This document shows, in pieces, positions 1 through 34,543 of a DNA stretch of 64,000 nucleotides. This DNA comes from a virus, in IMG/VR virus record IMGVR_UViG_3300033074_002003; one strand, written 5' to 3'. Position numbers and translations under genes: made by a program. Position 1 is the stretch's first letter. The number at the start of each line of letters is the position of its first letter. The notes beneath the pieces were generated by a model. It saw nothing but the letters and a program-made list of their open reading frames with translations, did not search any database and was not told the origin of the DNA.

Positions 1-20
1 TCCGTCCCGTTGCCCTCAGA

Positions 21-335
21 ATGGGCGTTCCCATCACATGGGATTCCCACCACCATACTTTCCGGGGCGGCTCTGTGCCTCCCGGCGAGGCACACATGAT
101 GGCACTGGACACTTGGCCCAGTCACATTCGCCCGCTCCAGCACGTTGCCAACACAGAGCCCGAGCTCGCGGGTGGTTCGTTCTCGGATCGCAGGAAGCAC
201 AGCGATTACCTGCACGCGATCCCTGAGGTGCAGCTCGCGGCGAACAACGCGGGTGAGATCGACCTCGAGTGCGAGTGCAAGATGAAAAACCTCGCTGTTT
301 TCAGGGCTGTGGAAGAGTTGGGCGCAAAATTGTGA
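21..335 (+). CDS. hypothetical protein (start uncertain, may begin upstream of window or at internal Met)
   Basis: ORF track; coherent non-repetitive translation. Confidence 0.3.
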   Translation: MGVPITWDSHHHTFRGGSVPPGEAHMMALDTWPSHIRPLQHVANTEPELAGGSFSDRRKHSDYLHAIPEVQLAANNAGEIDLECECKMKNLAVFRAVEELGAKL

Positions 336-17509: not shown

Positions 17510-18211
17510 TCAAGAGTACTTAGATTCGAAGTACTTCTTCGCCGCGACCCTGATGGCCGCAGAGACGTCGGCCTCAGTGACGCCGTCGATCGAGAATCCG
17601 ATGTCACCCACGAACTCGTCGTGTGCGGCCTCGAGCTGACCCGTCTGGGTCCCGCCCGATTTCTGCCTGTACGCGTAGTCGAGGTAGGGACGCTTCGGGT
17701 CCTTCACGAGCTTCGAGTCGTCCTTCGTCGGTTCTGTCTTTGGATCCTCTTCGTCGTCGAGCTTCAGTACCTCGATGCCACCGCTGCCCTGCGCAAACTT
17801 CGACCACACCCCGCCAGCATCTCCCGAGACGTCCTGCCTGTCTGACATGATCGTGTGTGTCGGGACGTGTGCCATCGTGATGTAGTACATCAGCGGACCG
17901 TACCCGCTGCCCTTCTCTGCGGCAGAGCGACGAATCTCCCATGCACCCTCGGCCTCTCCCGTGACAGAAGGAGAGAACATCGTCATCGCCTTCACGTTCT
18001 GCACGATGATCTCAGGAGCCTCGTCGCGGAATTGGAACTGCGGGTTGTGCGCGGCATCCTCGAGCTGTTGCGCCGCCGATCCGCGATCGTAGAGGACGGC
18101 GTAGTGCTCGTCACCGTCGTCGACAAAAGCGAGCGCGAGCCCAGCCTTCTGCGCCACCTGTGGAGTTGCCATCGCCTCAGAGATGACTGCACGGATGAAT
18201 TTCCTGATCAC
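17510..18211 (-). CDS. hypothetical protein, paralog triplet member 1
   Basis: shares GYGPLMY..[IM]..V.P...[IM].[SA]DR..V[ST]G.A.G[VI]W block with two downstream genes. Confidence 0.55.
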   Translation of the reverse strand: MIRKFIRAVISEAMATPQVAQKAGLALAFVDDGDEHYAVLYDRGSAAQQLEDAAHNPQFQFRDEAPEIIVQNVKAMTMFSPSVTGEAEGAWEIRRSAAEKGSGYGPLMYYITMAHVPTHTIMSDRQDVSGDAGGVWSKFAQGSGGIEVLKLDDEEDPKTEPTKDDSKLVKDPKRPYLDYAYRQKSGGTQTGQLEAAHDEFVGDIGFSIDGVTEADVSAAIRVAAKKYFESKYS

Positions 18212-18975
18212 GACAGCTCTCGTTCCTGTGACATTCCGATGGTCGCAGCAAAGTATTTCAGTGCTGCGTGCTCAAAGACCTTCTCAACCCACGACTGCGC
18301 TGCACTACCGATGACGGGACGCATGCGCTCCGTAAGCTCGCGAGCGAACTCCTCATGCTTTACATTCATAGAGCGTCCCGAAGGCGTGCTCGTTGAACTG
18401 TACGAATAGTTCAGTGGGTTAGCGTCCTCACCCTTCCTGATCTCTTCGGGATACACAAGTCCGTCATCGCTCTTTGGTGGTGTCTTGGGATCATCCACGT
18501 CGTCGATGTGATGTTTCTTCACGTCCTTGCGATTGTGGAAGTAGAACGACCACACGCCCCTCGCGTCACCCGATACGTTCTCGCGGTCAGACACGATTTC
18601 GTGTGATGGAGCGACAGACATCGCGATATCATACATCAGCGGACCGTACCCTTGCTCTGCCGCCGAGCCGACGACCTCTAGAGCACCATTCGTAGGTCCG
18701 CCGCGTGGCTTCCTCAGCGATACAGTACCGACAGATGCCCCCACGATGTCACCACGAATTCCTTCGAGGTACTTGAGGAGCGACGCCTTGTCTGTGTTCT
18801 TTGGTACTGGGCGCTTCAGCGCTCGCGCAGCACGGGCGGGCGAGTACATCAGGAGGTCGATAGTCTGTCCCTTCATGAGCACGAAGAGTGCCATGCCCGC
18901 CTCGCCCGCGGCGTCTGCACCGATCGCTGCCTCAGTGAGGCACCCTCGCACGAACTGTCTGATGCTATCGCTCAT
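18208..18975 (-). CDS. hypothetical protein, paralog triplet member 2
   Basis: ATGA coupling to member 1; conserved blocks. Confidence 0.55.
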   Translation of the reverse strand: MSDSIRQFVRGCLTEAAIGADAAGEAGMALFVLMKGQTIDLLMYSPARAARALKRPVPKNTDKASLLKYLEGIRGDIVGASVGTVSLRKPRGGPTNGALEVVGSAAEQGYGPLMYDIAMSVAPSHEIVSDRENVSGDARGVWSFYFHNRKDVKKHHIDDVDDPKTPPKSDDGLVYPEEIRKGEDANPLNYSYSSTSTPSGRSMNVKHEEFARELTERMRPVIGSAAQSWVEKVFEHAALKYFAATIGMSQERELS

Positions 18976-19700
18976 GGTTCCACCGAGTTCATGTATGCCT
19001 CATCGAAGAAGTACGAGCCCGCTGACCAGATCCTGTGTTCGATCGCGCTCTCTTTGTATCCTTGCAACCTGAGAATCTCGTGAGCTCTCTTCAGGAACGA
19101 AGCGTGCGAAGACTGAAGCGGGCCGAGAGGCAGCGGAGCCTCTGCGGTGTAAGCGTAATTGAGCGCGGGTTCACCCTTCGCGAGCTTGCACTTCGCGCCA
19201 TCAAGCTTCTGCGCCGCGACGCGCCCGTGCACGCCCGAACCCAGCGAGAGGTACTTGCGCCAGATTCCTTGGGCTGCACCCGTGACATTGTTCCTGTCAG
19301 CCATGATGCCGCCCGGCGATACAGACATCGCGATGTCGTACATCAGCGGACCGTAGCCCTTCCTCGCCGCAGACATCTTTACCTCACGCGCGCCATCGCA
19401 CCCACCGCCCAGCGAGATGAAACCAAGGATGTTGTTCTGAAAAGACTTCACTACGAGGTCATCAACGTCTGTGGTCTCGTCCTCGCGGGCGCGACCCACG
19501 ATGTCAGTGAGTTCGCGCAGGATCGACTTCGTGTCGTAGAGGATGTATGCAGGGTCGCCACCCGCATCACCGCCCACACACAGGGCGGCCCCGCGCCCGC
19601 TCGCGAAAGAAGAGTGGACCGCAGCCTCACGTATGACAGACCTGATGAATGCAATGAGGGGAAGCACGCCGGAGCTTAAATAGGTGTATTTAGGAGACAT
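18972..19700 (-). CDS. hypothetical protein, paralog triplet member 3 (start uncertain: 19700 ATG or 19667 GTG)
   Basis: ATGA coupling to member 2; conserved FIRSVIREA N-terminal block. Confidence 0.5.
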   Translation of the reverse strand: MSPKYTYLSSGVLPLIAFIRSVIREAAVHSSFASGRGAALCVGGDAGGDPAYILYDTKSILRELTDIVGRAREDETTDVDDLVVKSFQNNILGFISLGGGCDGAREVKMSAARKGYGPLMYDIAMSVSPGGIMADRNNVTGAAQGIWRKYLSLGSGVHGRVAAQKLDGAKCKLAKGEPALNYAYTAEAPLPLGPLQSSHASFLKRAHEILRLQGYKESAIEHRIWSAGSYFFDEAYMNSVEP

Positions 19701-21297
19701 GGGCGTCAAGACAAGGATCACCGACAAGGGAATTATTTCCACCAATGTTCCCAACGAACCGTCTTCATTTGACACGGACGTTCAGCTTGGAGACGGCAAG
19801 TTCGGTGCGATTCTTAGTACTGTTCGCACAGTTGCCACGACAGTTAACACAGCAATGATCTGTGGCGACTCTATGACTCGCGGCGGTGCTGTTGCAATGG
19901 ACGATACGACGTTGGCATGGCGTGGTCCGTTCTGGGACTATATTCAGAACTACGGATCTGGCCTTAAGCTGCTTGGACAAACAGTCGGTGGACTCTACTG
20001 GATTTCTACGTCGGCAAAAGGCGGGTGCGTCAAGCTCGGTGATTGGCACTGTTCAGCGACAGGTGGCCATACGTTGGCACAGATCAATACCGCGGCGGGT
20101 GTCGAGGAAGCCGCCACAGGCGCGGCAGATTGCTACTTGTTGCTCGGTGGCGAGAATGATAATGACGGGTCAGCTGGTTGCGTCGCCGCGATCCTCGCTG
20201 GGATCAACGCCTTCATCGTGGCACGCAAGACAGCAAATCCAAATTGCGTAATTCTTGTCGGCGATCTCACCTTCCACGCCAGCCCACTTGCTAGTTTTGC
20301 TAACAAAAACACACGACGCGACGCCGTAAACGCACAGCTCACGGCATCAATTGCGCAGCTCGGGTATCAGGGCGTCTATGTGGTCGCGTGCGGTTCACTC
20401 CTGACTTCAGCACATCTTGCTTCTGATGGCCAGCACCCGAATGGCGCGGGGTATGCGTTGATTGGCCGCGCATTTGCAGAGGCATTCGTACGCTATTGCA
20501 ATCTCCCAGGACTCTCTGGTAACCGTCCACCGTACTTTCGCAAGGCGAAAGCGCGACTCTCAATCACAGCGACAGATAACACGGCGAACGCGAACATCAC
20601 ATCGAGCGGATCTGACGGACTACTTCCGGCGGGCAACGAATCATGGTCGTTCGGTCTCGTCTTCCAACCGACAGACCTAACGAGCGCGTCTCAGCAGCGT
20701 GTGGTTAGTATCGGCGCAACATTCGCGACGGGCATATATCTTTTTTCAGAGCGTGGCTCGGGTGATTCGACAGGACGATCGCTATCACTTTACATCGCGG
20801 GTGTCGGTTACAGCGTAGCCAACGAGGCGCTGAAACTTAACAAATGGACGGCGATTACTGTCTCATATGACGCTGTTCGAACAGAGTTGACGATCTATGC
20901 CTATCGCGAAGGCGGTACGGGTGCTAACGGTAAGCCTGTGTCGTCGTGTGTATCTCTGTACCGAGGCGTGCCAACTCTAGCCCTTTCCCTCGGCGCGGGG
21001 GTCATCTCGTTTGGCTGGAATGCGAGTTATACTGTCGTGTCGAAGGGGCTAAAGGGAGATTTCTGGATCGCGCGAGGTCATGTTGCGACAGAAGCTGAAG
21101 CTGCTGCATTCTACTTGGAGGGTGAACTCCCACAGGGTGTCACTGCTTACTACCCAATGGACGACGGTACAGGAACCGCGCTCGCTGTACCTGCTGGATT
21201 TACGGCACTTCCCGCTGGTGTGATCAGTGGCGCTGGTGTGTCGTGGAGCGCTGCTGCGGCTGTTGCTGAGCCCTGGCATCGCGAGGCTGACGCGTAA
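19699..21297 (+). CDS. SGNH/GDSL hydrolase with C-terminal concanavalin/LamG-like region
   Basis: blocks I ICGDSMTRG, III GGENDND, V DGQHPN; RBS TAGGAGAC before ATGGGC. Confidence 0.65.
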   Translation: MGVKTRITDKGIISTNVPNEPSSFDTDVQLGDGKFGAILSTVRTVATTVNTAMICGDSMTRGGAVAMDDTTLAWRGPFWDYIQNYGSGLKLLGQTVGGLYWISTSAKGGCVKLGDWHCSATGGHTLAQINTAAGVEEAATGAADCYLLLGGENDNDGSAGCVAAILAGINAFIVARKTANPNCVILVGDLTFHASPLASFANKNTRRDAVNAQLTASIAQLGYQGVYVVACGSLLTSAHLASDGQHPNGAGYALIGRAFAEAFVRYCNLPGLSGNRPPYFRKAKARLSITATDNTANANITSSGSDGLLPAGNESWSFGLVFQPTDLTSASQQRVVSIGATFATGIYLFSERGSGDSTGRSLSLYIAGVGYSVANEALKLNKWTAITVSYDAVRTELTIYAYREGGTGANGKPVSSCVSLYRGVPTLALSLGAGVISFGWNASYTVVSKGLKGDFWIARGHVATEAEAAAFYLEGELPQGVTAYYPMDDGTGTALAVPAGFTALPAGVISGAGVSWSAAAAVAEPWHREADA

Positions 21298-21385
21298 AAG
21301 CCTCGTCATGAGCTGGATGCCGTGCGGCACACTGTAAATTCTCTCTTCACCCCCTATAGTGACACACAGACAGGTAGGGTGTGAC

Positions 21386-21952
21386 ATGGGTAGTAGCAGC
21401 CGGAGACTCAGTGAAACATACTCTGCGCCTCCTGCAGGGCAACTAGCGGCTGTACCCGTCACACCGCCCACACCCGTAATGCCCAGGCGCTTCGCGGGAC
21501 CAAAGAGCCCACACGATCTCATTCAGGAGCGCTACCCACACGACGGTTGGGCAGTCCTCGTGTGCTGTCTCATGCTCAACTGCACCACACGCGTGCAGAT
21601 GGAACGAGTGATCGGCCCGTTTCTGGAGAGGTGGCCCACTCCCTACGCGGTGCTGTCGGCCGGTTCTGACGAGATGGCCGAGGTCGTCCGCTCGCTCGGG
21701 TTCAAGAATCGCCGGACTGAGAGGATCAAGAGGCTGGCGGGAGATATCGTCGCGCTCGGCGACGGACCCATCACGAGCGAGAACGTTAGGTCTCTGCACG
21801 GCGTGGGCGAGTACGGAGCCCGAGCGTACGAGATCTTCTGCCTCGGCGTCCTAGGTGCAGAGCCACCCGAAGATCACAATCTCGTGAAGTACTACGAGTG
21901 GGCGCTCGCCAACCCCGACGCGTACGCTGCTGGATGGTCAGGTGACGTGTGA
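21386..21952 (+). CDS. HhH-GPD DNA glycosylase, MBD4/MIG-like (T:G / U:G mismatch glycosylase family)
   Basis: LHGVGEYGARAYEIFC closely matches MBD4 glycosylase-domain HhH motif LHGIGKYGNDSYRIFC; WAVLVCCLMLN; RBS GGTAGGG. Confidence 0.65.
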   Translation: MGSSSRRLSETYSAPPAGQLAAVPVTPPTPVMPRRFAGPKSPHDLIQERYPHDGWAVLVCCLMLNCTTRVQMERVIGPFLERWPTPYAVLSAGSDEMAEVVRSLGFKNRRTERIKRLAGDIVALGDGPITSENVRSLHGVGEYGARAYEIFCLGVLGAEPPEDHNLVKYYEWALANPDAYAAGWSGDV

Positions 21953-23671
21953 CGCGACCCAGTCGGGATTGTCCGCGCGCCACAGTTTAGCGTCCTCGTC
22001 ATCTGATGTCGCGTCGACGTCAGTGAAGGTCATCGTCTTCTCGTCCCACAGTACTAGCCCGGCTCCGCCGTCGAGGCGCGCAGACCAGACGACCGCCCAC
22101 CCTCTCCACGTATAGAACTCCGAATCGAGCAGGCTGTCAGACTCGTCGTCCCACACGCCCGAGAGGTGCTGTTCGAGGGACTGGAACGCGTCTGGGAACT
22201 GCGACTCGAAGTCTCTCATCGACATTTCGACGGCCGACTCAGAACCCGCGGGAACGTCCTCAGAGTGCGGGGGAAGCTCGGGTTTCTCCCTGCTGTCGAA
22301 CTCATCGGGATCGATGATCGGCTGTGAGATCGCTGCGGTGCCAGCAGAGTGGAACGAGCGTGAGATCACCTCATCTGACAGCCAGACAGCCCTGCGCTCG
22401 TCCCACGCGAGCGTGATGTGCGGGCGCTCGTGCGACCTGTGTTCCGGTTCGGCGCGCGATGCCGACCAGTCGCTCGTCTGAGGTAGCAGGGCGTCTTCCT
22501 CGCGCACGACGCTAGCGTAGAGGTGTCCGTCGTCGCCCGCGAAGAAATCGGGCTCGACTGCATAGTACGCGAGCTTCGCGCCCTCATCGCCCGCACTCTT
22601 TCGCTCGCTCACCGCGTCTGCCCACGAACCGAGCCACGCTCGCCAGGCCGCAGGGAACCTGCGCTCTACGTCGTCTGCCCACAGTCGCTGCGTCCCGGGC
22701 GGGATGGTGATCTGTTCGGTGGTGGGCGCAGAATAGAGGTCTTCTGAGAGGAGAGCGCGAAGTGTCTTCTTCGTCTCGAGAAGACGAACAATTTTCGTGA
22801 GAAGCTTTAGGTGCTGTGGGTTGATGTCGGCGGAATTTTTTTCTTGCGCCTCGTCAGTCTGTACGAGCAATCTCTTTGCGACTTCAGCGCTGTCGCGATT
22901 GTAAGCGTTGCTATACAAGTACCTCAGGTCGTACATCAGATATATCTCGTTGCCGCTTTCAGATTTTATCACGGCCTGCTTGTTGTCGATACTGATGACG
23001 ACATACACTCCGTTCGGAACCTTGCTCGCGACTTGATCTGGGCGTCCAAATGTTTGTTCGGCCCACCTGCCGCCCTTAGCGACCCACTCTTTGTATGCAC
23101 CGGGATAAATTTCAAATCCACCAGGATAGCACGTTGGGATATTTTCGTCGGGACTCAACTGGATGCGCATGCAGCGCCACTTGTATCCTTCGATGAAAAT
23201 CTTGTCGCCCGCTGATATGTGCGATTCGATGTTTGCGATCGTCGGTTTCTTGAACTGAAATTTTTCTTTCTTTCCCTGGACGCTCGCGTGCGCTTTTTTC
23301 GCAACTTCGAACCCGCGCGCCGTAAGCTGAAATTGGGCGCGCGCTCTGTTCTGTGGCGCCCACCACCACACTTGTTCACCATCGTTGTTATTTGTGCGAA
23401 AATCACTTTCGTTGTAACCACGAAATCGTAATTTCCCGCCCATCGGCCAGTATGCAAATAGATCGCCCATTTGTCCCACGGACCCGCGCCAAGCCACAAC
23501 AGCATTTCTGATCTCTTCTTTCGTTGCGGGACCGTGGTTCGCAAGGAAGACAGCGATAAATTCAGGAATAGAGATCGCCCCCTTGGGTACCGTCTCCCAG
23601 GCACGTTTTATCTCTTCTTCGCTCTCGCGGATGACGCGCGCGGCAAACTCTCGTATGATCTCTCTTGACAT
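21938..23671 (-). CDS. large hypothetical protein (about 577 aa)
   Basis: coherent translation from MSREIIREF; convergent with glycosylase gene. Confidence 0.5.
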   Translation of the reverse strand: MSREIIREFAARVIRESEEEIKRAWETVPKGAISIPEFIAVFLANHGPATKEEIRNAVVAWRGSVGQMGDLFAYWPMGGKLRFRGYNESDFRTNNNDGEQVWWWAPQNRARAQFQLTARGFEVAKKAHASVQGKKEKFQFKKPTIANIESHISAGDKIFIEGYKWRCMRIQLSPDENIPTCYPGGFEIYPGAYKEWVAKGGRWAEQTFGRPDQVASKVPNGVYVVISIDNKQAVIKSESGNEIYLMYDLRYLYSNAYNRDSAEVAKRLLVQTDEAQEKNSADINPQHLKLLTKIVRLLETKKTLRALLSEDLYSAPTTEQITIPPGTQRLWADDVERRFPAAWRAWLGSWADAVSERKSAGDEGAKLAYYAVEPDFFAGDDGHLYASVVREEDALLPQTSDWSASRAEPEHRSHERPHITLAWDERRAVWLSDEVISRSFHSAGTAAISQPIIDPDEFDSREKPELPPHSEDVPAGSESAVEMSMRDFESQFPDAFQSLEQHLSGVWDDESDSLLDSEFYTWRGWAVVWSARLDGGAGLVLWDEKTMTFTDVDATSDDEDAKLWRADNPDWVASHVT

Positions 23672-23747
23672 CGTGTGGATGACACTAAGTATCCCGAGAA
23701 TCCCACCGACACATCGATACTTAAATTTGTAGGGGCTCACAATCCCG

Positions 23748-24035
23748 GTGCGACACATGAAAGTATCAGCAGTGCCGAAGATAGCCACCAAGAATCCCAT
23801 TGATGGTTCGACCAAATTGGAGCTTCACATCTCACACCAACCAGACATCCAGAAGGGCGGCGCTCGCCTCATCGACTTCAGCGAGAGAAAGTTGAAGAAG
23901 ATCCTGAAGGGCCTCTTCTCCTCTGAGAAGCGCACACAGGTCGCTAACCTCATAGACAAGTATGTCGCTGGGCGCGCTGCTGTCGGCTGGAAGGGCGGTG
24001 CCCCCGTCTACGTTGACGTTCAGAAAGAGCGATGA
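23748..24035 (+). CDS. hypothetical protein (possible partner of downstream zinc-finger protein)
   Basis: ATGA coupled to 24032 gene; upstream TTGACA/TAAGTAT sigma70-like elements. Confidence 0.4.
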   Translation: MRHMKVSAVPKIATKNPIDGSTKLELHISHQPDIQKGGARLIDFSERKLKKILKGLFSSEKRTQVANLIDKYVAGRAAVGWKGGAPVYVDVQKER

Positions 24036-24250
24036 CCCGCAAGGTAACGCTGACGCACCTCGCACCGTGTAAATCGTGTTCGCGGGGGAAATTCGTCACA
24101 ATGTGGGGTCGCGGGCGATCACTGGTCTCGGGTGACAAGGTCCTGGTGATCCCGAACGGGATGCCCGTTCGGACGTGCGATGCTTGCGGCGAAATGCTGC
24201 TCGACGGCGACGAGATGAAATACCTCGAGGACGAAAATCGCGGGTTTTGA
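24032..24250 (+). CDS. YgiT/MqsA-type zinc-finger protein
   Basis: C.KSC...G.F......G.S..V..VP...C..CGE...D..E pattern typical of YgiT-type zinc ribbon. Confidence 0.45.
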   Translation: MTRKVTLTHLAPCKSCSRGKFVTMWGRGRSLVSGDKVLVIPNGMPVRTCDACGEMLLDGDEMKYLEDENRGF

Positions 24251-24289
24251 TGTTTGAACTTTGCTGAGCTCGCGCCGTATATTTGCGGA

Positions 24290-25906
24290 ATGAGCACAGA
24301 TTCTCTCTACACGGGTCGCAAGGTCGTTCTTCTTGGTGATGAGGCGCGGGCGGGACTCGTCGCCGGCCTCTCACTCCTTGCTGGAGCAGTCGCATGCACG
24401 CTCGGTCCGAAGGGCAAGTGTGTCCTCATTCAGTCGCAGGATTCAGGACCGCTCGTGACGAAGGACGGCGTCTCTGTCGCTCGTTCAATCTCCCTTCGCG
24501 ACCCGGCGATGCGCGCGGGTGCTGACCTGATCAGGGAGGCCTCACAGCGCACGGCAGACGTCGCGGGCGACGGGACGACAACTGCAACTGTGCTCGCACA
24601 CGCGATGGTGATCGAGGGGCTCGCGGCGATCAACAAGAAGAGCAATCCTGTCTCTGTGAAGAAGGGGATCGATATCGCGGTAGACGCCGTCGTCGCGGAG
24701 CTGAAGAGGAGCTCGAGGAACATCGACGCAGAGCACCTCCTGAAGCAGGTCGCGACGATCTCAGCGAACGGTGACGAGGCGATCGGCCTGCTCATCGCCC
24801 AAGCCGTGAAGAAGATGGGAGACGCGGGCGTCATCACCGTCGAGGAGGCGCGAGGGTCGACCGCCACGACCCTCGAGTTCGTCGAAGGCCTCCAGTTCGG
24901 GTGTGGGTGGATGAACTCTTACTTCGCGACGAACACGGACAAGATGGTCGCGGAGCTACTAAACCCGCTCGTGCTCCTCTGCGATCAGAGAGTCTCGACG
25001 TCGAGCGACCTGAGACCCGCACTCGAGGCCGCGCACAAGTCCGGTCGCCCGCTCCTCATCATCGCCGAAGACGTCGAGGGCGAAGCCCTGCAAACACTTA
25101 TCGTGAACAAAGTGAAGGGCCTGCTACAAATCTGCGCCGTGAAGGCACCCGGATGGGGAACCGCCCGCGCAGAACTCCTCAACGACATGGCGACCCTCAC
25201 GGGCGCGAGGGTCGTGTCGCCAGCGACGGGCCTCAAGATCACTGACGTTCGCCTCGAGCACATGGGCTCTGCGGAGCGCGCGACATCAGACAAGGCGACA
25301 ACGACGATTGTGGGAGACGGAAAGACTGTCGACGCGATCTCTGGACGCGTGACAGAACTTCGCGAGCGACTCGCCGTCCCTTCGCTCACGTCAGAAGAGC
25401 GATCGCAGCTTATCGAGAGGATCGGAAAGCTCTCGGCGGGCGCCGCTGTCATTCGCGTGGGCGGGTTGACGGAGGTCGAGGTGCGAGAGCGAAAGGATCG
25501 CGTCGATGACGCTGTCTGCGCGACGAGGGCGGCTCTGGAGGAGGGCATCGTTCCGGGCGGGGGCACCGCTCTGGCGCGGGCCTCTGGGTGCCTCGCAGAA
25601 ATTATTTCGGGCGAAACGAACAGGGACATCAGGACGGGATGCGAAATTGTCCGAGCGGCGTGCCTCGCGCCCATCAGACAGATCGCCTCGAACGCTGGTG
25701 TGTCACCTGACGTCGTCTCGGAACGGTCGCTTCACCCGGCGAACGCGCCTTTCTGGGGCTGGGACGCGGCGAGCGGAGACTGGCGCGACCTCGGCAAGGC
25801 GGGCATCATCGATCCGACGAAGGTGACGCGCACGGCACTTCAACACGCCGCGTCCGTCGCGGGCGTATTCCTGACGCTGGACGCCGTCGTCCTCGACGAG
25901 GTCTGA
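24290..25906 (+). CDS. groEL: GroEL/Cpn60-like chaperonin
   Basis: LGPKG, VTKDGVSVA, DVAGDGTTTATVLA, GGG.AL; 538 aa. Confidence 0.9.
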   Translation: MSTDSLYTGRKVVLLGDEARAGLVAGLSLLAGAVACTLGPKGKCVLIQSQDSGPLVTKDGVSVARSISLRDPAMRAGADLIREASQRTADVAGDGTTTATVLAHAMVIEGLAAINKKSNPVSVKKGIDIAVDAVVAELKRSSRNIDAEHLLKQVATISANGDEAIGLLIAQAVKKMGDAGVITVEEARGSTATTLEFVEGLQFGCGWMNSYFATNTDKMVAELLNPLVLLCDQRVSTSSDLRPALEAAHKSGRPLLIIAEDVEGEALQTLIVNKVKGLLQICAVKAPGWGTARAELLNDMATLTGARVVSPATGLKITDVRLEHMGSAERATSDKATTTIVGDGKTVDAISGRVTELRERLAVPSLTSEERSQLIERIGKLSAGAAVIRVGGLTEVEVRERKDRVDDAVCATRAALEEGIVPGGGTALARASGCLAEIISGETNRDIRTGCEIVRAACLAPIRQIASNAGVSPDVVSERSLHPANAPFWGWDAASGDWRDLGKAGIIDPTKVTRTALQHAASVAGVFLTLDAVVLDEV

Positions 25907-26095
25907 TCAGTCGACGAGCGTCGACTCGTTCACCTGGATCGCGTCAACGCGGAGGGGATGAACGCCCGTACGCTGCATGTCTACAATCACGACACCCTCA
26001 ACGTTGCCGCGTATGACAACACCCAGATCGTATGCTTTTCTATCCGTGGGAGATTTCCACAGGATGAGCGCGCCCATCTTCACTTCTCTGTGCAT
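25907..26095 (-). CDS. small hypothetical protein (possibly degenerate array-family member)
   Basis: KMGALILW...YDLGVVIRG resembles array core; overlaps 26040..26285. Confidence 0.3.
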   Translation of the reverse strand: MHREVKMGALILWKSPTDRKAYDLGVVIRGNVEGVVIVDMQRTGVHPLRVDAIQVNESTLVD

Positions 26096-26285
26096 CAGAG
26101 ATAACTAGGCGAGCGCCCTGATAAAGCGAACGGAGCCGCGCTCCGTCACTCGGGTAGATCTTCTCGAGGTGTGTCAGTGCGTGATCAGAGTAGCACTTGT
26201 CACACACCTCGCGACCGCAGACAGAACAGTCCCACCGGTCGCTCTCGTAGATGAGTTCGCTTCGACAGTTTCCGCACTTGACCAT
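26040..26285 (-). CDS. Cys-rich zinc-finger-like small protein
   Basis: CGNC...CSVCGREVCDKC pattern. Confidence 0.35.
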   Translation of the reverse strand: MVKCGNCRSELIYESDRWDCSVCGREVCDKCYSDHALTHLEKIYPSDGARLRSLYQGARLVISDAQRSEDGRAHPVEISHG

Positions 26286-26288
26286 CGT

Positions 26289-26558
26289 TCACTCTCCTGG
26301 AGCAATAAGCCTACACAGCTCTGATTTGAAGTGTCGGACGCGCAGTGCGTCAGACGTTACGATCGACACCATCTCGATTAACTGCACGCCGCCCCGCGCC
26401 TGAACGTGAGCGGTGATTTTGATCGGATCAAAGTCGAACTCGCCATCCCAAAAGTCGTGCTCGGCCTCTTGTATGTAGACTTCCGAAATTACACCAACCC
26501 AGTTCCCGCCCGCCACCTCGACGAGGTCACCGACCCTGAAACTTCGTCTTGCGCCTAC
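26289..26558 (-). CDS. array-family small protein (KOW/SH3-like motif FRVGDLVEVAGGNWVGVISEV)
   Basis: GTG start overlapping upstream stop (GTGA); canonical N-terminal motif. Confidence 0.5.
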   Translation of the reverse strand, partial: VGARRSFRVGDLVEVAGGNWVGVISEVYIQEAEHDFWDGEFDFDPIKITAHVQARGGVQLIEMVSIVTSDALRVRHFKSELCRLIAPGE

Positions 26559-26965
26559 TTTGAGGGTTCGCCGACGGGCCATGTCGTGTACTTCTGTTCG
26601 TTGCGCTTCGGTTCTGCGGTGGGCGCAGAACGCGCACCAGTGGGAACTCGCGTCCCGTTCGGGGGCGGCGAAATCTTCTTCTTCATGGCGTCGGGTATGA
26701 GGTAAACGATGAGGTCTTTCAGGTGTTCACCGACAGACGACATCACATCAATCGCAATCTCGCGAGTATCACCCTCGGGCAGCGTATCGCTTCCTGTCTT
26801 CTTCTTTGCGACGTCAGAAGCGATACGCCACACGAAATTCTGCAAGAGCTTCATCGTGTCCTCACCGACGAACGGAAACTTGTTTCTCAGGACTGCGGTC
26901 GACGTCGTCTCTTCTTTGAGGATTGTCGAGACGATTTCGCGGAGGACACTCTCTTCGATGCGCAT
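26555..26965 (-). CDS. hypothetical protein (non-family, inside array block)
   Basis: 136 aa coherent translation MRIEESVLREIV. Confidence 0.45.
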   Translation of the reverse strand: MRIEESVLREIVSTILKEETTSTAVLRNKFPFVGEDTMKLLQNFVWRIASDVAKKKTGSDTLPEGDTREIAIDVMSSVGEHLKDLIVYLIPDAMKKKISPPPNGTRVPTGARSAPTAEPKRNEQKYTTWPVGEPSK

Positions 26966-26985
26966 GCACCTAAATATGCGTCACA

Positions 26986-27375
26986 TCACCAGGGCTTGCC
27001 GCATGTCGGGCAGTTGTTGCTCGCCGCGTTCGGGCCGCGACCCGCGCGAGAACCGTGCGCACCGCGAAGGCGAAGCTCGTAGTTCGCGCGGCTCACGATC
27101 GCCCTGCCGACATTTGCGACAGCGGGGTGGCGATCGTTCGAGAGCTGCGCGCCCACGCGCTCCATGTCAGCGTGCGTCAGCGTGTGATCGACGTCAGAGC
27201 GGACGCGTGTCGCCTCGTCGAGGACGGCGACGATCACCGTGAGCAGATCGCCCGAGGGCGCCGGCCGACCAGCGAGGTAGCGCCAGCAGATCGAGTGCCA
27301 GTGAGAGGGCCGCGTGCACACGTCAGTGACGAGCTGTGCGATGGTCTGTGAGCTTGGTTGATAATAATTCGCCAT
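26986..27375 (-). CDS. hypothetical protein with C-terminal CPTCGKPW (non-family)
   Basis: ATG MANYYQ 6 nt downstream of extended -10 TGGTATAAT (leaderless). Confidence 0.45.
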   Translation of the reverse strand: MANYYQPSSQTIAQLVTDVCTRPSHWHSICWRYLAGRPAPSGDLLTVIVAVLDEATRVRSDVDHTLTHADMERVGAQLSNDRHPAVANVGRAIVSRANYELRLRGAHGSRAGRGPNAASNNCPTCGKPW

Positions 27376-27381
27376 GCGCAG

Positions 27382-27390
27382 ATTATACCA
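27382..27390 (-). promoter_or_regulatory. extended -10 promoter TGGTATAAT driving leaderless 26986..27375
   Basis: minus-strand TGTGGTATAATctgcgcATG. Confidence 0.45.
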
Positions 27391-27406
27391 CAGGCAGAGA
27401 ATTTGT

Positions 27407-27595
27407 TCACTCAACAATGACACGCACGAGGTCATCTCGCAGGGCGATAAGCATTGTGGTGCGCGTCTTCGGACAGTACGCGTCACAGATAAGCCGGTCA
27501 GCTGTCTCGTGCTTGTCGCGCCAGGTGCGCAGGACGACGAATATGTTGCCCGTGACCGTGCCTCGAATGAGGCTACCTACCCGAGCGCTCTCCAT
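27407..27595 (-). CDS. array-family small protein (divergent; ends LVRVIVE)
   Basis: ARVGSLIRG motif; start ambiguous. Confidence 0.4.
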   Translation of the reverse strand: MESARVGSLIRGTVTGNIFVVLRTWRDKHETADRLICDAYCPKTRTTMLIALRDDLVRVIVE

Positions 27596-27839
27596 TTCGA
27601 GAACTAACTACCACTTCAGCGAAGGCGCTCCCACTCAGGACAAAAATCTCGCGCCTGAAGTTGGAAAACAGGCCACTCACCCCGGGTGCCAGCCCGTACG
27701 ACATATTTCCGATCCAGAATACTCGGACGGGATCGCTGTCCGTAACGACGCCGAGCTCGGAATCGTCATCTGGCATCGAGAGGTGCGCGCTCGCGTCCGA
27801 GAGCACGAGGTCTCCCACACGAACGTGTCGAGGCGTCAT
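27573..27839 (-). CDS. array-family small protein
   Basis: MTPRHVRVGDLVL; ATGA overlap with upstream stop. Confidence 0.55.
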   Translation of the reverse strand: MTPRHVRVGDLVLSDASAHLSMPDDDSELGVVTDSDPVRVFWIGNMSYGLAPGVSGLFSNFRREIFVLSGSAFAEVVVSSRNGERSGR

Positions 27840-28051
27840 CGAGTTATCTTCCACCACTTTGCGACCCCCTCGCTCGAAGCTAGAGACGAATACATGACAC
27901 CGCCCATCGCGCACATCGAATCTATCCAGACAATCTCAAATTCGGCCTTCTCAACGCCCTCGACATCGCTGCGTACGAGCTTCACGACGACGCCCAGCTC
28001 GTTGTCAAACCCATCGAGGATGAGGTCACCGACCCGTAGGGTGTCGTTCAC
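27836..28051 (-). CDS. array-family small protein
   Basis: MNDTLRVGDLILDGFDNELGVVV. Confidence 0.55.
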   Translation of the reverse strand: MNDTLRVGDLILDGFDNELGVVVKLVRSDVEGVEKAEFEIVWIDSMCAMGGVMYSSLASSEGVAKWWKITR

Positions 28052-28065
28052 CCGCGGATCATACG

Positions 28066-28260
28066 CTACTCGTCGCGATTGTTACTGCCCCTCATCGCGG
28101 CGACCGAGACAGACGCCCTGATGTCCGCCTCATCGCTCTCACTTTCGCACACGTGATTGACAGTGGGACCCATCACCCACACGAGCGATCGAGTGCCAGG
28201 TGATGGGACGGGTACCCAACCAGCTCGTGTGGGATCGAATTCGGCAGCGGCTGATTTCAT
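28066..28260 (-). CDS. small hypothetical protein (non-family insert)
   Basis: MKSAAAEFDP..; ATGA coupling to upstream family gene. Confidence 0.35.
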   Translation of the reverse strand: MKSAAAEFDPTRAGWVPVPSPGTRSLVWVMGPTVNHVCESESDEADIRASVSVAAMRGSNNRDE

Positions 28261-28454
28261 CTCGCGATCACCATATCTCTTCTGAAAACCACCATTGTGC
28301 ACAGGGAGTTTCCACAAACAAACGTGGCATCAAACTCCTCTTCAAGTGGATCGTAGTCAACCACAACACCGACATTGAATTCGCCGGTTGGCATATCGCG
28401 AGTCAAAATCAGGTCACCGATCCTGAAGCGCGGGACCAAGTTGGCGTGTGTCAT
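28257..28454 (-). CDS. array-family small protein
   Basis: FRIGDLILTRD...MVIAR; ATGA coupling. Confidence 0.55.
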   Translation of the reverse strand: MTHANLVPRFRIGDLILTRDMPTGEFNVGVVVDYDPLEEEFDATFVCGNSLCTMVVFRRDMVIAR

Positions 28455-28651
28455 CGCGCGATGATCCGATCCGATCCGATGATGGGCATGGACATCAACT
28501 TCCCACGCTCGACAAGGAACATACCGAGAGAATGCCGTCCCCAAATGTTGTCACGGTACGCGACACCGATTGTCTGCGAAGAGTCACCCGTCAGCACGAG
28601 GTCGCCGACACGCACTGTGTCGTCACCACGACAAATCTCGCGAACGATCAT
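28451..28651 (-). CDS. array-family small protein
   Basis: VRVGDLVLTGD...RIIAR; ATGA coupling. Confidence 0.6.
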   Translation of the reverse strand: MIVREICRGDDTVRVGDLVLTGDSSQTIGVAYRDNIWGRHSLGMFLVERGKLMSMPIIGSDRIIAR

Positions 28652-28863
28652 TTCGCGATCACCCGATCCGATTGAATGAGCGATAGTGCAGTGAACCCAT
28701 GAAAGTCCACGAACAGTGCCCTCGGCGTCGTTATTACTATTCGTAGAGCGTCAGCTCTGGGATTGGTGGCGTAGACAACGTGAGCGGTGACAACACCCAG
28801 CGATCCATCGCGGGTGGTCACAAGGTCTCCCACGCGAATCTCATCGTAGGTGTGCGCGCTCAT
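28648..28863 (-). CDS. array-family small protein
   Basis: IRVGDLVTTRDGSLGVV...RVIAK; ATGA coupling. Confidence 0.6.
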   Translation of the reverse strand: MSAHTYDEIRVGDLVTTRDGSLGVVTAHVVYATNPRADALRIVITTPRALFVDFHGFTALSLIQSDRVIAK

Positions 28864-29048
28864 CTCGCGATCGCCGTGTCAGTGTGAATGATCGCAATCC
28901 TCACGAGCTTGCCCTCAAATACTACGTGAGCGGCGAACGAGGGATAGTTGTACTCGTACGAATTCGTAATGACGCCGACGTATCCCGGGTAGGTCATAAT
29001 CAGATCTCCCACCTTGGGTGGACGCAACTCTGGATGCGTGCGTCTCAT
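28860..29048 (-). CDS. array-family small protein
   Basis: PKVGDLIMTYPGYVGVI...TAIAR; ATGA coupling. Confidence 0.55.
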   Translation of the reverse strand: MRRTHPELRPPKVGDLIMTYPGYVGVITNSYEYNYPSFAAHVVFEGKLVRIAIIHTDTAIAR

Positions 29049-29401
29049 CCCACCACCCTGTCCTCGTACGAGAGCGCGAGCATTGCGAGCCCGCTCACGC
29101 CTTGCACGACACAGAGAGCTCTGGGCCAGCTGTGTTCCCACCCGAGCTCGAGGTCGATCCGCTCTAGCACGACACCGACCAAACTGCCCATGCGATACTC
29201 GCCCGCGACGAGGTCACCGAAACGCACGTGATGGTACTGCTTGGTGCCCGCGGCCATACCCACACTGTAGCTCACGCGGGCGGCTCCTACACGTGCAACC
29301 CTCGGTGACCCGCAGGACCCTCCGGTGTGTGGGAAGTGGTACCACCCATCCCTGTCGGTAAGGGTCCCACGTGGGTCACCCGGGGGACACGGGACGGTCA
29401 C
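29045..29401 (-). CDS. array-family small protein (N-terminally extended)
   Basis: VRFGDLVAGEY...DRVVG; ATGA coupling. Confidence 0.5.
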   Translation of the reverse strand: MTVPCPPGDPRGTLTDRDGWYHFPHTGGSCGSPRVARVGAARVSYSVGMAAGTKQYHHVRFGDLVAGEYRMGSLVGVVLERIDLELGWEHSWPRALCVVQGVSGLAMLALSYEDRVVG

Positions 29402-29676
29402 CGGACCACCCGTGCACGGTGCAGGTCCAAGTCAGCCGTCTCGCCTGCGTGAGTGTCTTCCCACAGTTCTGCCGAGCGAGTCTCGATGTCGATGACGTTT
29501 TTCACGTGTTCGTACGTGGTGATACCCGTCACTACGAAAATCTCGACGTCGTAGTCTTCGTGGAGGAGGATAAGGTCTCCCACGAAGAGTCGCAGGTCTG
29601 ACAGTTTGACGTAAGCGTCGCACTCTTCAACGTCGCACTCTTCAAAGACACTGGCAGTATCGCGTTCCTTGATCAT
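29398..29676 (-). CDS. array-family small protein
   Basis: LRLFVGDLILLHEDYDVEIFVV...ARVVR. Confidence 0.55.
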   Translation of the reverse strand: MIKERDTASVFEECDVEECDAYVKLSDLRLFVGDLILLHEDYDVEIFVVTGITTYEHVKNVIDIETRSAELWEDTHAGETADLDLHRARVVR

Positions 29677-29894
29677 CGCGCTAGCACCTGCGATCTGTTT
29701 ATGACGTACTCGGGCGACTCGGCCGGGTAGTGACGATACATTGCGACCGCGTTGCTGCAAAAAAACGTGTCGACATCGATAGTGCCGCGAACGAACCCTT
29801 CCTCAATGCCGGTGATGACGATCAACCCATCTGATGCTAACAGCAGGTCTCCCACGAACAACCGAAGCTCTGATAGCGACAGCGTTTTAGTCAT
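29673..29894 (-). CDS. array-family small protein
   Basis: LRLFVGDLLLASDGLIVI...SQVLAR (near-duplicate N-term of neighbour). Confidence 0.55.
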   Translation of the reverse strand: MTKTLSLSELRLFVGDLLLASDGLIVITGIEEGFVRGTIDVDTFFCSNAVAMYRHYPAESPEYVINRSQVLAR

Positions 29895-30133
29895 CTCGCG
29901 AGCACCCTGAATTTCCCGGCAAACCAGTGATGTTTTTCCGCACCATGTGGTGTAGAGCCACAAGTAATCGGATCGAACACCCAAACGTTCACGCCGTAAT
30001 CGTGGTGAGGTACGACTGCGTGAATCACTCCGATCCTTCGCCCGTTGCGCTCAATGATAAGATCTCCCACGCAGAACTTGATGTCCAACATGCCGAGGTG
30101 ACCCGGAGTGGGTGTGGGATATTCCTTCGCCAT
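29891..30133 (-). CDS. array-family small protein
   Basis: FCVGDLIIERNGRRIGVI...FRVLAR. Confidence 0.55.
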   Translation of the reverse strand: MAKEYPTPTPGHLGMLDIKFCVGDLIIERNGRRIGVIHAVVPHHDYGVNVWVFDPITCGSTPHGAEKHHWFAGKFRVLAR

Positions 30134-30134
30134 T

Positions 30135-30344
30135 TCACCTCGCTAGCACTGTGAGTTCGCCAGCGAAAGCTCGATCGACGTTGATGCCGTTGCCGAACTT
30201 CTCGACGATCGCGGCTTGGTAGTGCGGTCCTACCCATCCCGTGACGACAGCAACTCTTCTTCTTGGCTGCACGATCTGCCCGTCGCTCGTATAGAAGCAC
30301 TCGCCGAAGAGCACGAGGTCGCCCACGCGAAATATCGAGCTCAT
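30135..30344 (-). CDS. array-family small protein
   Basis: MSSIFRVGDLVLFGE...LTVLAR. Confidence 0.6.
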   Translation of the reverse strand: MSSIFRVGDLVLFGECFYTSDGQIVQPRRRVAVVTGWVGPHYQAAIVEKFGNGINVDRAFAGELTVLAR

Positions 30345-30532
30345 CTCGCGATCACCGAAGCGCCCCAGATTATGACCTGCGGGTAGAGCGTCGCACTTGC
30401 ACGCTTGACTCCCGTGCCGTAGAATTGATCTGTGCTGTCGTACGCAATGAGGGTGATGACGTATATGCCCACCCGGTCAGCGACGAGGTCACCGAAGCGC
30501 CCTCTCGGGAATGTCAGAAGCGGATGGCTCAT
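30341..30532 (-). CDS. array-family small protein
   Basis: GRFGDLVADRVGIYVI...ASVIAR; ATGA coupling. Confidence 0.6.
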   Translation of the reverse strand: MSHPLLTFPRGRFGDLVADRVGIYVITLIAYDSTDQFYGTGVKRASATLYPQVIIWGASVIAR

Positions 30533-30756
30533 CGCGCAATCACCCTGGCACTCCGCACTGTGATATCTGCAAGGAAGATCTCCTTCGCACAGCCTGTAAC
30601 GTGAAAGTAGAACACCCTGTGCGAGTCGTCCATCATGTGAATCATGTGAGGGGCGTCGTGGTTGATGTGTGTGATGACGTAAACACCGCGCAACGTCGTG
30701 ATGAGATCACCCACCCGGGCATCTGGAAACCTGAGCGTGTGTACTGACAGGTTCAT
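30529..30756 (-). CDS. array-family small protein
   Basis: ARVGDLITTLRGVYVI...ARVIAR; ATGA coupling. Confidence 0.6.
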   Translation of the reverse strand: MNLSVHTLRFPDARVGDLITTLRGVYVITHINHDAPHMIHMMDDSHRVFYFHVTGCAKEIFLADITVRSARVIAR

Positions 30757-30989
30757 TTGCTGTCACTCGCGAGCGTCACTTCGGTGACGAGTCCCGTTCT
30801 CACCGTGCGCCTCCCACGGCCGTCAATATACCAATTTGCTTGCGCATTTTCCGTGCCGTCTGTCACAAGACCAAACTGATTCCAGCGATCTCTACCTGTG
30901 ACGACGAGCACGTCTTTGTTAGTGATGAGAAGATCACCCACACGCACGTATGGGTTCGTGTACGGAAAGTTCGATGCGAGAAATTTCAC
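30753..30989 (-). CDS. array-family small protein (ends ASDSK)
   Basis: YVRVGDLLITNKDVLVV; GTGA coupling. Confidence 0.5.
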   Translation of the reverse strand: MKFLASNFPYTNPYVRVGDLLITNKDVLVVTGRDRWNQFGLVTDGTENAQANWYIDGRGRRTVRTGLVTEVTLASDSK

Positions 30990-31228
30990 CCTTTTGCCCA
31001 CTTGCAGTACTCGCTGTGAGCGTGCTTCTGTTCGGGAGAACCCACGATGTACAGGTCAACTGCCCCGCGGAGCATAGTCTCCGCGTTGCCGCGGATCGAT
31101 ACGCGGTAGATCTCTAGAAGTTCTCCGCGGGCATCCAACTTGCGACACCGACCGATGACGACGCCCACCCACTTCCCGCGCTGGCCCGTGACGAGGTCAC
31201 CGACGCGAAATAATTTCAGGTGATCCAC
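30986..31228 (-). CDS. array-family small protein (C-terminus divergent)
   Basis: MDHLKLFRVGDLVTGQRGKWVGVVIG. Confidence 0.5.
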   Translation of the reverse strand: MDHLKLFRVGDLVTGQRGKWVGVVIGRCRKLDARGELLEIYRVSIRGNAETMLRGAVDLYIVGSPEQKHAHSEYCKWAKG

Positions 31229-32295: not shown

Positions 32296-32483
32296 GTTCT
32301 CTCTCCCTCGAGCTCGCTCTCCCACACGTAACTCATCGTCCCGTCACACCACATGATGTGATGATCGACAGCGTGCAGATGTGTATCACCAAAGCTTTTT
32401 ACGATGACACCAGTGACGTTATCTTTCTCGCGACCCTCAATTAACCGCGAGTGAAGCACCAGATCGCCGACGTGTCTGATCAC
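32292..32483 (-). CDS. array-family small protein (GTG start)
   Basis: VIRHVGDLVLHSRLIEG; GTGA coupling. Confidence 0.45.
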   Translation of the reverse strand: MIRHVGDLVLHSRLIEGREKDNVTGVIVKSFGDTHLHAVDHHIMWCDGTMSYVWESELEGERT

Positions 32484-32695
32484 TCGCACAGGAGGATCGC
32501 CTCTGGGTGCGTGCGTACCCACACCGTGCCAACTTCAAATACGTGCCGCCCATCTAACCCGCTGTGTGCGGAATGAATCTGAAGGGCGCCTGGGTCTGTG
32601 CCGATAACGACACCGATACCAGACGGGTCGTACTTCACGCCGTCCACTTCCTCCTCGACGTGAACGAGATTCCCGACGCGGAACCCGTGTGTCAT
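32480..32695 (-). CDS. array-family small protein (divergent: FRVGNLVHV)
   Basis: ATGA coupling. Confidence 0.5.
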   Translation of the reverse strand: MTHGFRVGNLVHVEEEVDGVKYDPSGIGVVIGTDPGALQIHSAHSGLDGRHVFEVGTVWVRTHPEAILLCE

Positions 32696-33072: not shown

Positions 33073-33075
33073 GTG

Positions 33076-34541: not shown

Positions 34542-34543
34542 AG

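Follow-up and report, generated by a model that had tools for sequence, protein, structure and literature searches.

A predicted MBD4-type DNA glycosylase in a jumbo phage and its viral relatives

What would a phage do with the catalytic domain of MBD4, an enzyme usually seen as a eukaryotic guardian of methylated CpG? The question is raised by a gene at positions 21386 to 21952 of IMGVR_UViG_3300033074_002003, a viral stretch of 64,000 nucleotides (the window, below), where the same domain occurs as a stand-alone phage gene under purifying selection. A first-pass annotation, made from the sequence alone, had proposed an MBD4/MIG-like mismatch DNA glycosylase that would either repair deaminated cytosines or belong to a modified-base pathway or an anti-restriction strategy. 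In our analysis the product is probably a monofunctional MBD4-type glycosylase that would excise uracil (U), thymine (T) and 5-hydroxymethyluracil (5hmU) opposite guanine (G) and initiate base excision repair of jumbo-phage DNA. The gene and its parts are:

21386..21952, + strand: MBD4-type DNA glycosylase gene, 188 amino acids (aa) (open reading frame (ORF), Pfam PF00730, phmmer against the PDB, AF2 model with Foldseek, ratio of non-synonymous to synonymous substitution rates (dN/dS))
21386..21418, + strand: conserved N-terminal peptide MGSSSRRLSET (motif MGSS(S/M)(R/K)(R/G)x(S/C)x(T), common to the homologues P0002, P0007, P0008, P0009 and L002)
21419-21478, + strand: variable Pro/Thr-rich linker after this peptide (length and sequence vary among homologues)
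21479..21910, + strand: catalytic HhH-GPD domain, residues about 32-175 (phmmer alignment to 7kz0/4dk9; equivalent to human MBD4 437-574)
21524..21526, + strand: codon of Gln47, equivalent to human MBD4 Gln449 (alignments)
21575..21592, + strand: DNA-intercalating loop L64-N-C-T-T-R69, equivalent to human MBD4 466-471 LNRTSG (alignment)
21794..21829, + strand: helix-hairpin-helix (HhH) motif L137-HGVGEYGARAY-148, including Tyr143, equivalent to human MBD4 Tyr540 (alignments)
21872..21874, + strand: codon (GAT) of Asp163 in PPEDH, equivalent to human MBD4 Asp560, catalytic (sequence and alignments)

Family, fold and catalytic residues

Sequence, profile and structure all place the protein with MBD4, as the first-pass annotation had claimed. 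Its sole Pfam family is HhH-GPD (PF00730; 28.9 bits, just above the gathering score of 26.2, E=1.6e-6), and in a phmmer search of the PDB the top 15 distinct sequences are all MBD4 glycosylase-domain chains (E=6e-21 to 1.4e-18, over query residues 24-178), led by human and mouse MBD4 at E=6e-21; the next families are Mig (1KEA, E=1.8e-6) and MutY/EndoIII (E of at least 5e-4). A profile built from viral members in turn recovers vertebrate MBD4 at E~1e-50. The AF2 model, built on a 63-sequence alignment, has a mean pLDDT of 94.2 and a pTM of 0.88, with pLDDT of at least 90 over 140 of 157 residues, and predicts a compact all-helical fold of ~140 aa that can be superposed on MBD4 structures. These structures occupy Foldseek ranks 1-16 (TM 0.77-0.82 by query and 0.87-0.90 by target, root-mean-square deviation (rmsd) 1.9-2.2 Å), and Mig follows after all of them, at 7 Å. 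A resemblance to MBD4 far beyond chance is confirmed. No PHROG family matches the glycosylase at E<=0.1.

Compared with the glycosylase domain of mammalian MBD4 (human ~426-580; 4DK9, 4E9G, 6VJW, 7KZ0, 1NGN), the protein shows 29-31% identity and TM values of 0.80/0.90, and shares the size of ~145 aa, the catalytic Asp, the Gln/Tyr base-reading pair and the LN-x-T and LG-x-x-x-R loops, as well as the lack of both an Fe-S cluster and a lyase Lys. Unlike MBD4, it is encoded by a bacteriophage and not by a eukaryote, carries an 11-aa conserved peptide and a 20-aa linker where MBD4 has its methyl-CpG-binding domain, and differs at four positions (Arg468 to Cys, Gly471 to Arg, Leu508 to Phe and Lys562 to Asn). 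As no methyl-CpG-binding domain (PF01429) was found in it, we call the protein an MBD4-type glycosylase and not an MBD4 orthologue. An MBD4-type catalytic domain without a methyl-CpG-binding domain is also found in plant MBD4L (Arabidopsis), a eukaryotic nuclear protein with a long, disordered N-terminal region.

The label "MIG-like" holds only loosely. Mig (archaeal Mig.MthI/Mig, 1KEA), which shares the HhH-GPD fold, is the second-best family by both sequence and structure; its enzymes excise T or U opposite G and occur alongside C5-methylation of cytosine. The archaeal virus APSV1 encodes a glycosylase of this type, one gene away from a PF00145 C5-methyltransferase. Yet Mig enzymes measure ~220 aa and carry a C-terminal 4Fe-4S cluster (with a PF10576 match in APSV1), whereas the window protein lacks both the extra domain and the cysteines, and the rmsd to its model is 7 Å for Mig versus 2 Å for MBD4. 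One outcome that would have told against the first-pass annotation, placement with the Fe-S endonuclease III family, did not materialise, as profile and structure give MBD4 and not EndoIII, MutY or Mig. Membership in these three families was rejected: there is no Fe-S motif and no Lys, and the NCBIfam models score 28 bits versus 211.7 (nth) and 24.5 versus 286.5 (mutY).

The residues expected of an active enzyme are in place. Both peptides quoted in the first-pass annotation are found, LVCCLMLNCTTRVQMERV at residues 58-75 and LHGVGEYGARAYEIFC at residues 137-152. To assess conservation, we tallied 352 aligned domains (335 without reference rows) from short metagenomic proteins, long proteins (>330 aa) and 80 IMG/VR genes, and numbered human MBD4 residues backwards from the C-terminal end of the phmmer-aligned sequence. 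The catalytic Asp, whose presence the first-pass annotation had left to be checked, is Asp163; it is invariant across the 352 family members, occurring in 333 of the 335 aligned domains with gaps in the other two, and also invariant in the alignments A1 and A2. Gln occupies the Gln449 position in about 90% of members, gaps aside, while Gly139, Gly141 and Tyr143 of the HhH motif are invariant or nearly so. In human MBD4, Asp560 is the catalytic residue, Gln449 hydrogen-bonds N3/O2 of the flipped pyrimidine (Q449A is dead) and Tyr540 reads O2 (PMC3479182). Five MBD4 positions (Asp560, Asn467, Gly507, Gly538 and Leu563) are invariant in the family and two (Tyr540 and Arg512) nearly so; all are present here. 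Leu466-Asn467, at the start of the intercalating loop, correspond to Leu64-Asn65, Leu506-Gly507 of the DNA-binding loop to Leu104-Gly105, and the conserved Arg512 to Arg110; Leu508 is replaced by Phe106. After the motif L137-HGVGEYG-144 comes the Gly/Pro-rich stretch G157-AEPPE-D163, which in the HhH-GPD superfamily is expected, with the catalytic Asp, about 20 residues beyond the motif.

The only cysteines are Cys60, Cys61, Cys66 and Cys152, the C-x6-C-x2-C-x5-C pattern is absent, and PF10576 (EndIII_4Fe-2S) gives no match in the protein at E<=1. The lyase Lys position of bifunctional enzymes is held by Tyr143 in the phmmer alignment; the EndoIII nucleophile at this position is Lys120. With neither a lyase Lys nor an Fe-S cluster, the enzyme should be monofunctional, like MBD4.

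The intercalating loop differs from that of MBD4 in a way that is systematic in the clade. Viral members combine Gln, Cys or Leu at position 468 with Arg471 (Arg471 in 66 and Arg468 in only 2 of the 80 IMG/VR members), while the long members mostly pair Arg or Lys at 468 with Gly471 (38 and 68 of 79, respectively). Since position 468 varies among the long members too, we treat the loss of Arg468 as a subfamily signature that would not disqualify the protein from the MBD4 clade. In MBD4, Arg468 fills the space vacated by the flipped base (PMC3479182); Arg69, three residues downstream in the loop, may have taken over this helix-plugging role. From its sequence and predicted structure, the protein is best described as a phage-borne MBD4-type enzyme of the HhH-GPD superfamily whose intercalating loop bears the signature of its clade.

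Predicted activity and integrity of the gene

On the model that we propose, the HhH hairpin (residues 137-148) and two loops (residues 64-69 and 102-109) would bind and bend duplex DNA, and the G-mispaired pyrimidine would be flipped into a pocket formed by Leu45-Ile46-Gln47, Leu64, Tyr143 and Asp163-His164. Gln47 and Tyr143 would read the uracil-type face (O2, N3-H, O4), from which we infer as substrates U, T and 5-substituted uracils such as 5hmU opposite G, that is, the deamination products of cytosine (C), 5-methylcytosine (5mC) and 5-hydroxymethylcytosine (5hmC). Asp163 would promote hydrolysis of the N-glycosidic bond and, as there is no lysine nucleophile, an intact abasic (AP) site would be left, to be nicked by another enzyme. 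Candidates for nicking and finishing are the phage's own UvdE and ligase (see below) and a host AP endonuclease, and, for other phages, the Fpg/Nei and FEN enzymes encoded next to the glycosylase. Of the two functional options offered by the first-pass annotation, repair of deaminated cytosines is the better supported; as to its remark on a high-GC genome, the GC content of the window is 59%.

Several points weigh against this reading. The Arg468 plug of MBD4 is Cys66 here, the pocket-lining Gly471 is Arg69, and Lys562 is Asn165 (Ser in a 96%-identical relative), so that the specificity could differ from that of MBD4. Pfam scans found no Xth/Nfo AP endonuclease, Fpg/Nei or DNA polymerase in the window. 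Finally, the immediate neighbours, a GDSL-lipase-like insertion upstream and a 625-aa gene of unknown function downstream, are uninformative.

The loop and pocket changes could be taken further, as marks of a retargeted enzyme (Cys66/Arg69 in the loop, Arg for Gly471 and Asn for Lys562 in the pocket) with a specificity unlike that of MBD4, acting for instance on oxidised pyrimidines, on alkylated bases, or on uracil anywhere as a substitute for Ung. Specificity is plastic in the HhH-GPD superfamily, which we count in favour of this idea, as we do the systematic difference between the viral loop signature and eukaryotic MBD4; the co-location with Fpg/Nei, NUDIX and Pyr_excise genes described below would fit a general damage-repair island equally well. 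However, the readers of the uracil face (Gln449, Tyr540 and the backbone position of Val448) and Leu466-Asn467 are conserved across the viral clade, and MBD4 reads the orphan guanine by main-chain carbonyls and not by side chains (PMC3479182), so that the change of Arg468 need not abolish G specificity. We therefore consider a retargeted enzyme improbable and retain excision of U, T or 5hmU opposite G as the predicted activity.

The gene is functional and under purifying selection. The window is collinear with a related contig (L002) at 97-99% nucleotide identity, and the two glycosylase alleles differ at 29 of 567 sites, 22 synonymous and 7 non-synonymous (dN/dS 0.09), with none of the seven replacements at a conserved position. 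This bears on a further possibility, that of a catalytically inert DNA-binding or decoy protein, or of a decaying ORF remnant. The N-terminal peptide and flexible linker suggest tethering and could fit a non-enzymatic role, but there is no positive support for it; the catalytic and substrate-binding positions are all intact, dN/dS is low, the AF2 model is confident and compact, and several phage lineages have retained the gene. Inertness or decay hence appears very improbable beside an active glycosylase.

The divergence of the glycosylase gene from L002, ~5% and mostly at synonymous sites, is about ten times denser than in the downstream flank (~0.5% over 21953-31949), which suggests a recombinational exchange of the gene with a relative less close than L002. 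Directly upstream, at 19687-21317, the window carries a 1.63-kb insertion relative to L002, with a gene for a 537-aa protein whose N-terminal half is GDSL-lipase-like (Pfam E=3.6e-6, below threshold; phrog_6102 'lipase'). Given this insertion, the immediate neighbourhood does not form a conserved operon. At its other end, the glycosylase gene stands tail-to-tail with the minus-strand gene of the 625-aa protein, with a 15-nt overlap, and L002 is arranged alike.

The ORF runs on the + strand from an ATG at 21386 to a stop codon at 21950-21952 (included in the coordinates), with an alternative GTG start at 21359. Some gene callers have chosen an internal ATG at 21479 for an orthologue, giving 157 aa. 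The ATG at 21386, which the first-pass annotation had already picked, is the better start, since the N-terminal peptide is conserved, one member of the 90% cluster of the glycosylase is called at 188 aa, and 5-14 nt ahead of it there is a purine-rich stretch (AGGTAGGGTG). The peptide is kept in homologues with only ~50% identity to the window protein in the catalytic domain (MGSSSKGLSKT in P0002, MASSSKGLTKT in P0007, MGSNMRRICET in P0008 and MGSSMRRVSDT in P0009). As a guess, it could tether the enzyme to a partner protein. The idea of a general targeting signal was rejected, since the peptide begins no other ORF of the window, L002, L003 or L007.

Neither a sigma-70-type promoter nor an intrinsic terminator was found around the gene. 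A 14-mer similar to the core of a T7-type promoter, GTCACTATAGGGGG on the minus strand at 21350-21363, just ahead of the start codon, is directed away from the glycosylase, toward the site of a minus-strand gene in L002. We discarded it as a promoter candidate and attribute it to chance: there is a single copy, and 13 of 100 shuffles contained a match too.

Relatives, their gene neighbourhoods and modified cytosine

A HMMER search of 1.84 billion cluster representatives returned 1,950 relatives, 738 of them at E<=1e-10. The family consists of stand-alone proteins of ~140 aa and of long proteins that carry the domain at their C-terminus; the long ones with a named source are animal MBD4. In IMG/VR, at least 576 viral contigs encode a relative. 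A peptide-pattern search found 130 relatives in IMG/VR versus a single one in 185,579 bacterial and archaeal species genomes (one genome each), a contrast that is somewhat overstated, the two sets of patterns being near-identical but 1-2 residues longer for the genomes. This one prokaryotic relative, at 28% identity, belongs to an archaeal metagenome-assembled genome (MAG), and the only named cellular sources are MAG bins with phage-looking contigs. Judged by these searches, the viral clade appears large and almost purely viral, with its own loop signature (non-Arg468 with Arg471).

The similarity is visible to automated annotation, as the JGI pipeline already labels many relatives 'methyl-CpG-binding domain protein 4', while reference databases mostly give 'hypothetical protein' or 'endonuclease III' for the viral clade, and the only good structural match in BFVD is a granulovirus protein. 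Among 50,697 deposited phage records, homologues in bacterial phages occur only in Xp12-like Bradleyvirinae (13 records), where they are annotated as 'hypothetical protein' (Xp12, QNN97216.1), 'ENDO3c domain-containing protein' (AXL_1) or 'endonuclease III' (Donnerlittchen). A literature search returned no description of phage MBD4-like glycosylases, nor of the Xp12 copy. The Xp12-type homologues resemble the window protein (28-30% identity) in being stand-alone MBD4-type domains of ~155-160 aa with a residue other than Arg at 468 (the Xp12 loop reads LNLTTWRQ), but do not have its MGSS N-terminal peptide. Their carriers are ~60-kb siphoviruses in which the gene lies inside a dCMP-methylase/deaminase/dihydrofolate reductase (DHFR) cluster, whereas the window copy stands between unrelated genes.

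The neighbouring genes in relatives are the company of a repair enzyme. For the first 80 IMG/VR loci of the at least 576 contigs, we clustered every ORF lying no more than 6 kb from the glycosylase. The commonest neighbour is an Fpg/Nei glycosylase-lyase (24 of the 80 loci, which are phylogenetically non-independent, a further point against reading much into these counts), typically as the next gene downstream at a median of 0.6 kb; with its AP-lyase activity it would complement a monofunctional glycosylase. ClpP and ribonucleotide reductase follow with 22 loci each, then the FEN 5'-3' exonuclease (18), DnaB (17), a dUTPase-like protein (16) and Pol III alpha (12). On three jumbo contigs (L005, L006 and L009; 325-369 kb), FEN, NUDIX, UDP-glucose pyrophosphorylase, MBD4-like and Fpg/Nei genes occur together, with one trypsin-like protease gene between the last two, and L009 additionally carries a T4-endoV-like Pyr_excise gene. 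In these contigs the MBD4-like gene lies just downstream of the UDP-glucose pyrophosphorylase gene, adjacent in L006 and with 1-2 small ORFs between in L005 and L009, and a phosphomannomutase-like gene neighbours the glycosylase in 10 IMG/VR loci. Such a supply of sugar nucleotides beside repair genes may hint at glycosylated DNA bases.

In two isolates, Xp12 and Donnerlittchen, the glycosylase gene abuts a cluster of pyrophosphohydrolase, thymidylate synthase (TS) homologue, deaminase and DHFR genes. In Xp12 DNA, 5mC replaces all C, and the TS homologue makes 5-methyl-dCMP (bioRxiv 10.1101/2024.12.05.627091). A TS-family gene also lies within 10 kb of the glycosylase in 12 of the first 80 IMG/VR loci, and in all 14 neighbouring TS homologues (these 12 and the two isolates) an Asp stands at the position of Asn177 in E. 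coli ThyA. In the ThyA sequence used for this numbering, the motif PFNIAS indexes exactly to 177. Replacement of Asn177 by Asp switches TS from dUMP to dCMP specificity (PMC8670742).

The reverse test, again over ±10 kb around each gene, gave an MBD4-like gene at 14 of 31 T4-gp42-like Asp-type loci and at 19 of 80 Xp12-like loci, but at 0 of 80 loci of Asn-type ThyA controls, bar one weak match (30.7 bits) to a 351-aa ORF. With the TS proteins collapsed at 90% identity, an MBD4-like gene lies beside 20 of 66 Asp-type versus 0 of 41 Asn-type genes (Fisher p=2e-5), although the Asp-type queries were seeded from glycosylase-positive loci and the lineages are non-independent, which also tells against leaning on the figure. 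Deamination of 5mC and 5hmC yields T and 5hmU, which Ung leaves in place. The association with Asp-type TS makes biochemical sense, since MBD4 excises T and 5hmU opposite G (PMC3479182).

These observations feed a rival to plain repair of deaminated cytosines, namely that the jumbo phage of the window itself replaces C by 5mC, 5hmC or a derivative. Host Ung could not remove the T or 5hmU arising from the modified C, and the enzyme might police wrong-type bases in the phage DNA. In favour of it speak the confinement of the deposited bacterial-phage homologues to Bradleyvirinae, inside a 5mC-synthesis cluster, the contrast between Asp- and Asn-type TS, the activity of MBD4 on T and 5hmU opposite G (PMC3479182) and the UDP-glucose pyrophosphorylase and phosphomannomutase genes beside the glycosylase gene in several phages. 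On the other hand, no TS homologue, C5-methyltransferase or other cytosine-modification gene was found in the 64 kb scanned of a ~300-kb genome, nor within ±10 kb in L002-L009 and L012-L014, an absence that we also count against the main reading above; in the window, a TS HMM, the pathway proteins of Xp12 and Donnerlittchen, and regular expressions for C5-methyltransferase motifs all gave no match. Moreover, 68 of the 80 first loci have no TS homologue within 10 kb. L288-L296 (IMG/VR contigs of ~55-60 kb and two fragments), close relatives of the Xp12 dCMP-methylase cluster with TS homologues 68-76% identical to that of Xp12, have no MBD4-like gene within 10 kb, so that a phage with predicted 5mC DNA need not carry the glycosylase. 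We regard a modified-cytosine genome in this phage as possible but on balance doubtful. The modified-base option of the first-pass annotation is thus supported for relatives, through the Xp12-like cluster and the TS association, but not by the 64-kb window or by the ±10 kb around the gene in its closest relatives; the anti-restriction role found no support.

The jumbo phage carrying the gene

The phage to which the window belongs is a jumbo phage of about 300 kb. Contigs of 305,889 and 329,329 bp carry close relatives of the glycosylase (at least 90% identical), and the attribution to a phage, made at first pass, is borne out by these contigs of >300 kb, by PHROG matches on neighbouring genes (e.g. 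phrog_1297 at 2.6e-50), by a tRNA cluster with a transfer-messenger RNA (tmRNA) and by dense small ORFs without a Pfam family. No near relative of this phage was found among the 50,697 deposited phage genomes, and exact-DNA scans of IMG/VR and JGI metagenome contigs for the rest of its genome gave no match. Further features of the window are:

3..335, + strand: UvdE UV-damage endonuclease gene, truncated by the window edge to its last 110 codons at the 3' end (homology to L175)
24254-25906, + strand: Cpn60/GroEL chaperonin (Pfam E=1.5e-69)
48831-50360: tRNA cluster (Tyr, Phe, Met, Arg-CCT), then a 397-nt tmRNA with the tag peptide ANDNGTSLALAA
50463-53121, + strand: AAA_5 (MoxR-like) ATPase, then a DUF2201 metallopeptidase/VWA-like protein (phrog_1297, phrog_1314)
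59096-59170 and 62015-62089: further tRNAs, tRNA-Met and tRNA-Arg(TCT)

Window positions 1-2000 are 99.1% identical to a related contig (L175), in which the full 312-aa ORF matches Pfam UvdE (E=4.9e-43) and is preceded by genes for an ATP-dependent DNA ligase (~3 kb upstream), a histone-deacetylase-family protein and a sigma-70-type factor (region 3371-8855 of that contig). Relatives thus extend the window by ~10 kb on the left, with these four genes, and by 6-10 kb on the right, with small unknown ORFs only. With UvdE in the window and a ligase in the 99%-identical contig, the phage has other repair genes. UvdE enzymes incise AP sites, and we infer that UvdE is a candidate for nicking those left by the glycosylase.

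A Pfam scan of about 60 window ORFs gave RNA ligase, GDSL-like, Cpn60, KaiC-like ATPase, endonuclease I (T7-endonuclease-I-like), AAA_5, DUF2201, DUF2786/DUF7168 and HNH matches, while many ORFs have no Pfam family at all. Among the latter is an ~18-kb array of paralogues, also present in L002 and L003, in which ~49 tandem small genes follow each other ~200 bp apart on the minus strand (26500-44550), with another copy on the + strand near 60566; they encode a motif R-[V/I/L]-G-D-L-[V/I/L] near the N-terminus, followed by a hydrophobic, strand-like stretch. Two adjacent paralogous genes on the minus strand (17510-18211 and 18208-18975; 233 and 255 aa), with common stretches such as SAAE-G-GYGPLMY, have no Pfam or PHROG match. 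A minus-strand pair of similar size (239 and 230 aa) lies just upstream of the glycosylase in L007, a more distant relative.

The mechanism that we predict for the phage enzyme is in itself unsurprising; what stands out is how large and how strongly viral the clade is, and that it appears tied to phages that modify cytosine. If the association with dCMP methylases and hydroxymethylases holds, it would explain how phages whose genomes are fully substituted with 5mC or 5hmC handle the T and 5hmU that are invisible to Ung, and modified-cytosine phages could be recognised in metagenomes by an inexpensive sequence marker. The small viral enzymes (~145 aa) could also serve as reagents for the detection of T:G or 5hmU:G. 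Going further, and only as a speculation that we think more likely to fail than to hold, MBD4-type glycosylases might be largely a viral invention or reservoir tied to C5-modified cytosine, carried, often with Fpg/Nei, by phages with 5mC- or 5hmC-based genomes against the T and 5hmU formed by deamination. In that case the gene would predict modified cytosine in the ~300-kb phage, and the near-absence of the family from cellular prokaryotes would be a sign that phages and eukaryotes exchanged genes when the MBD4 catalytic domain arose.

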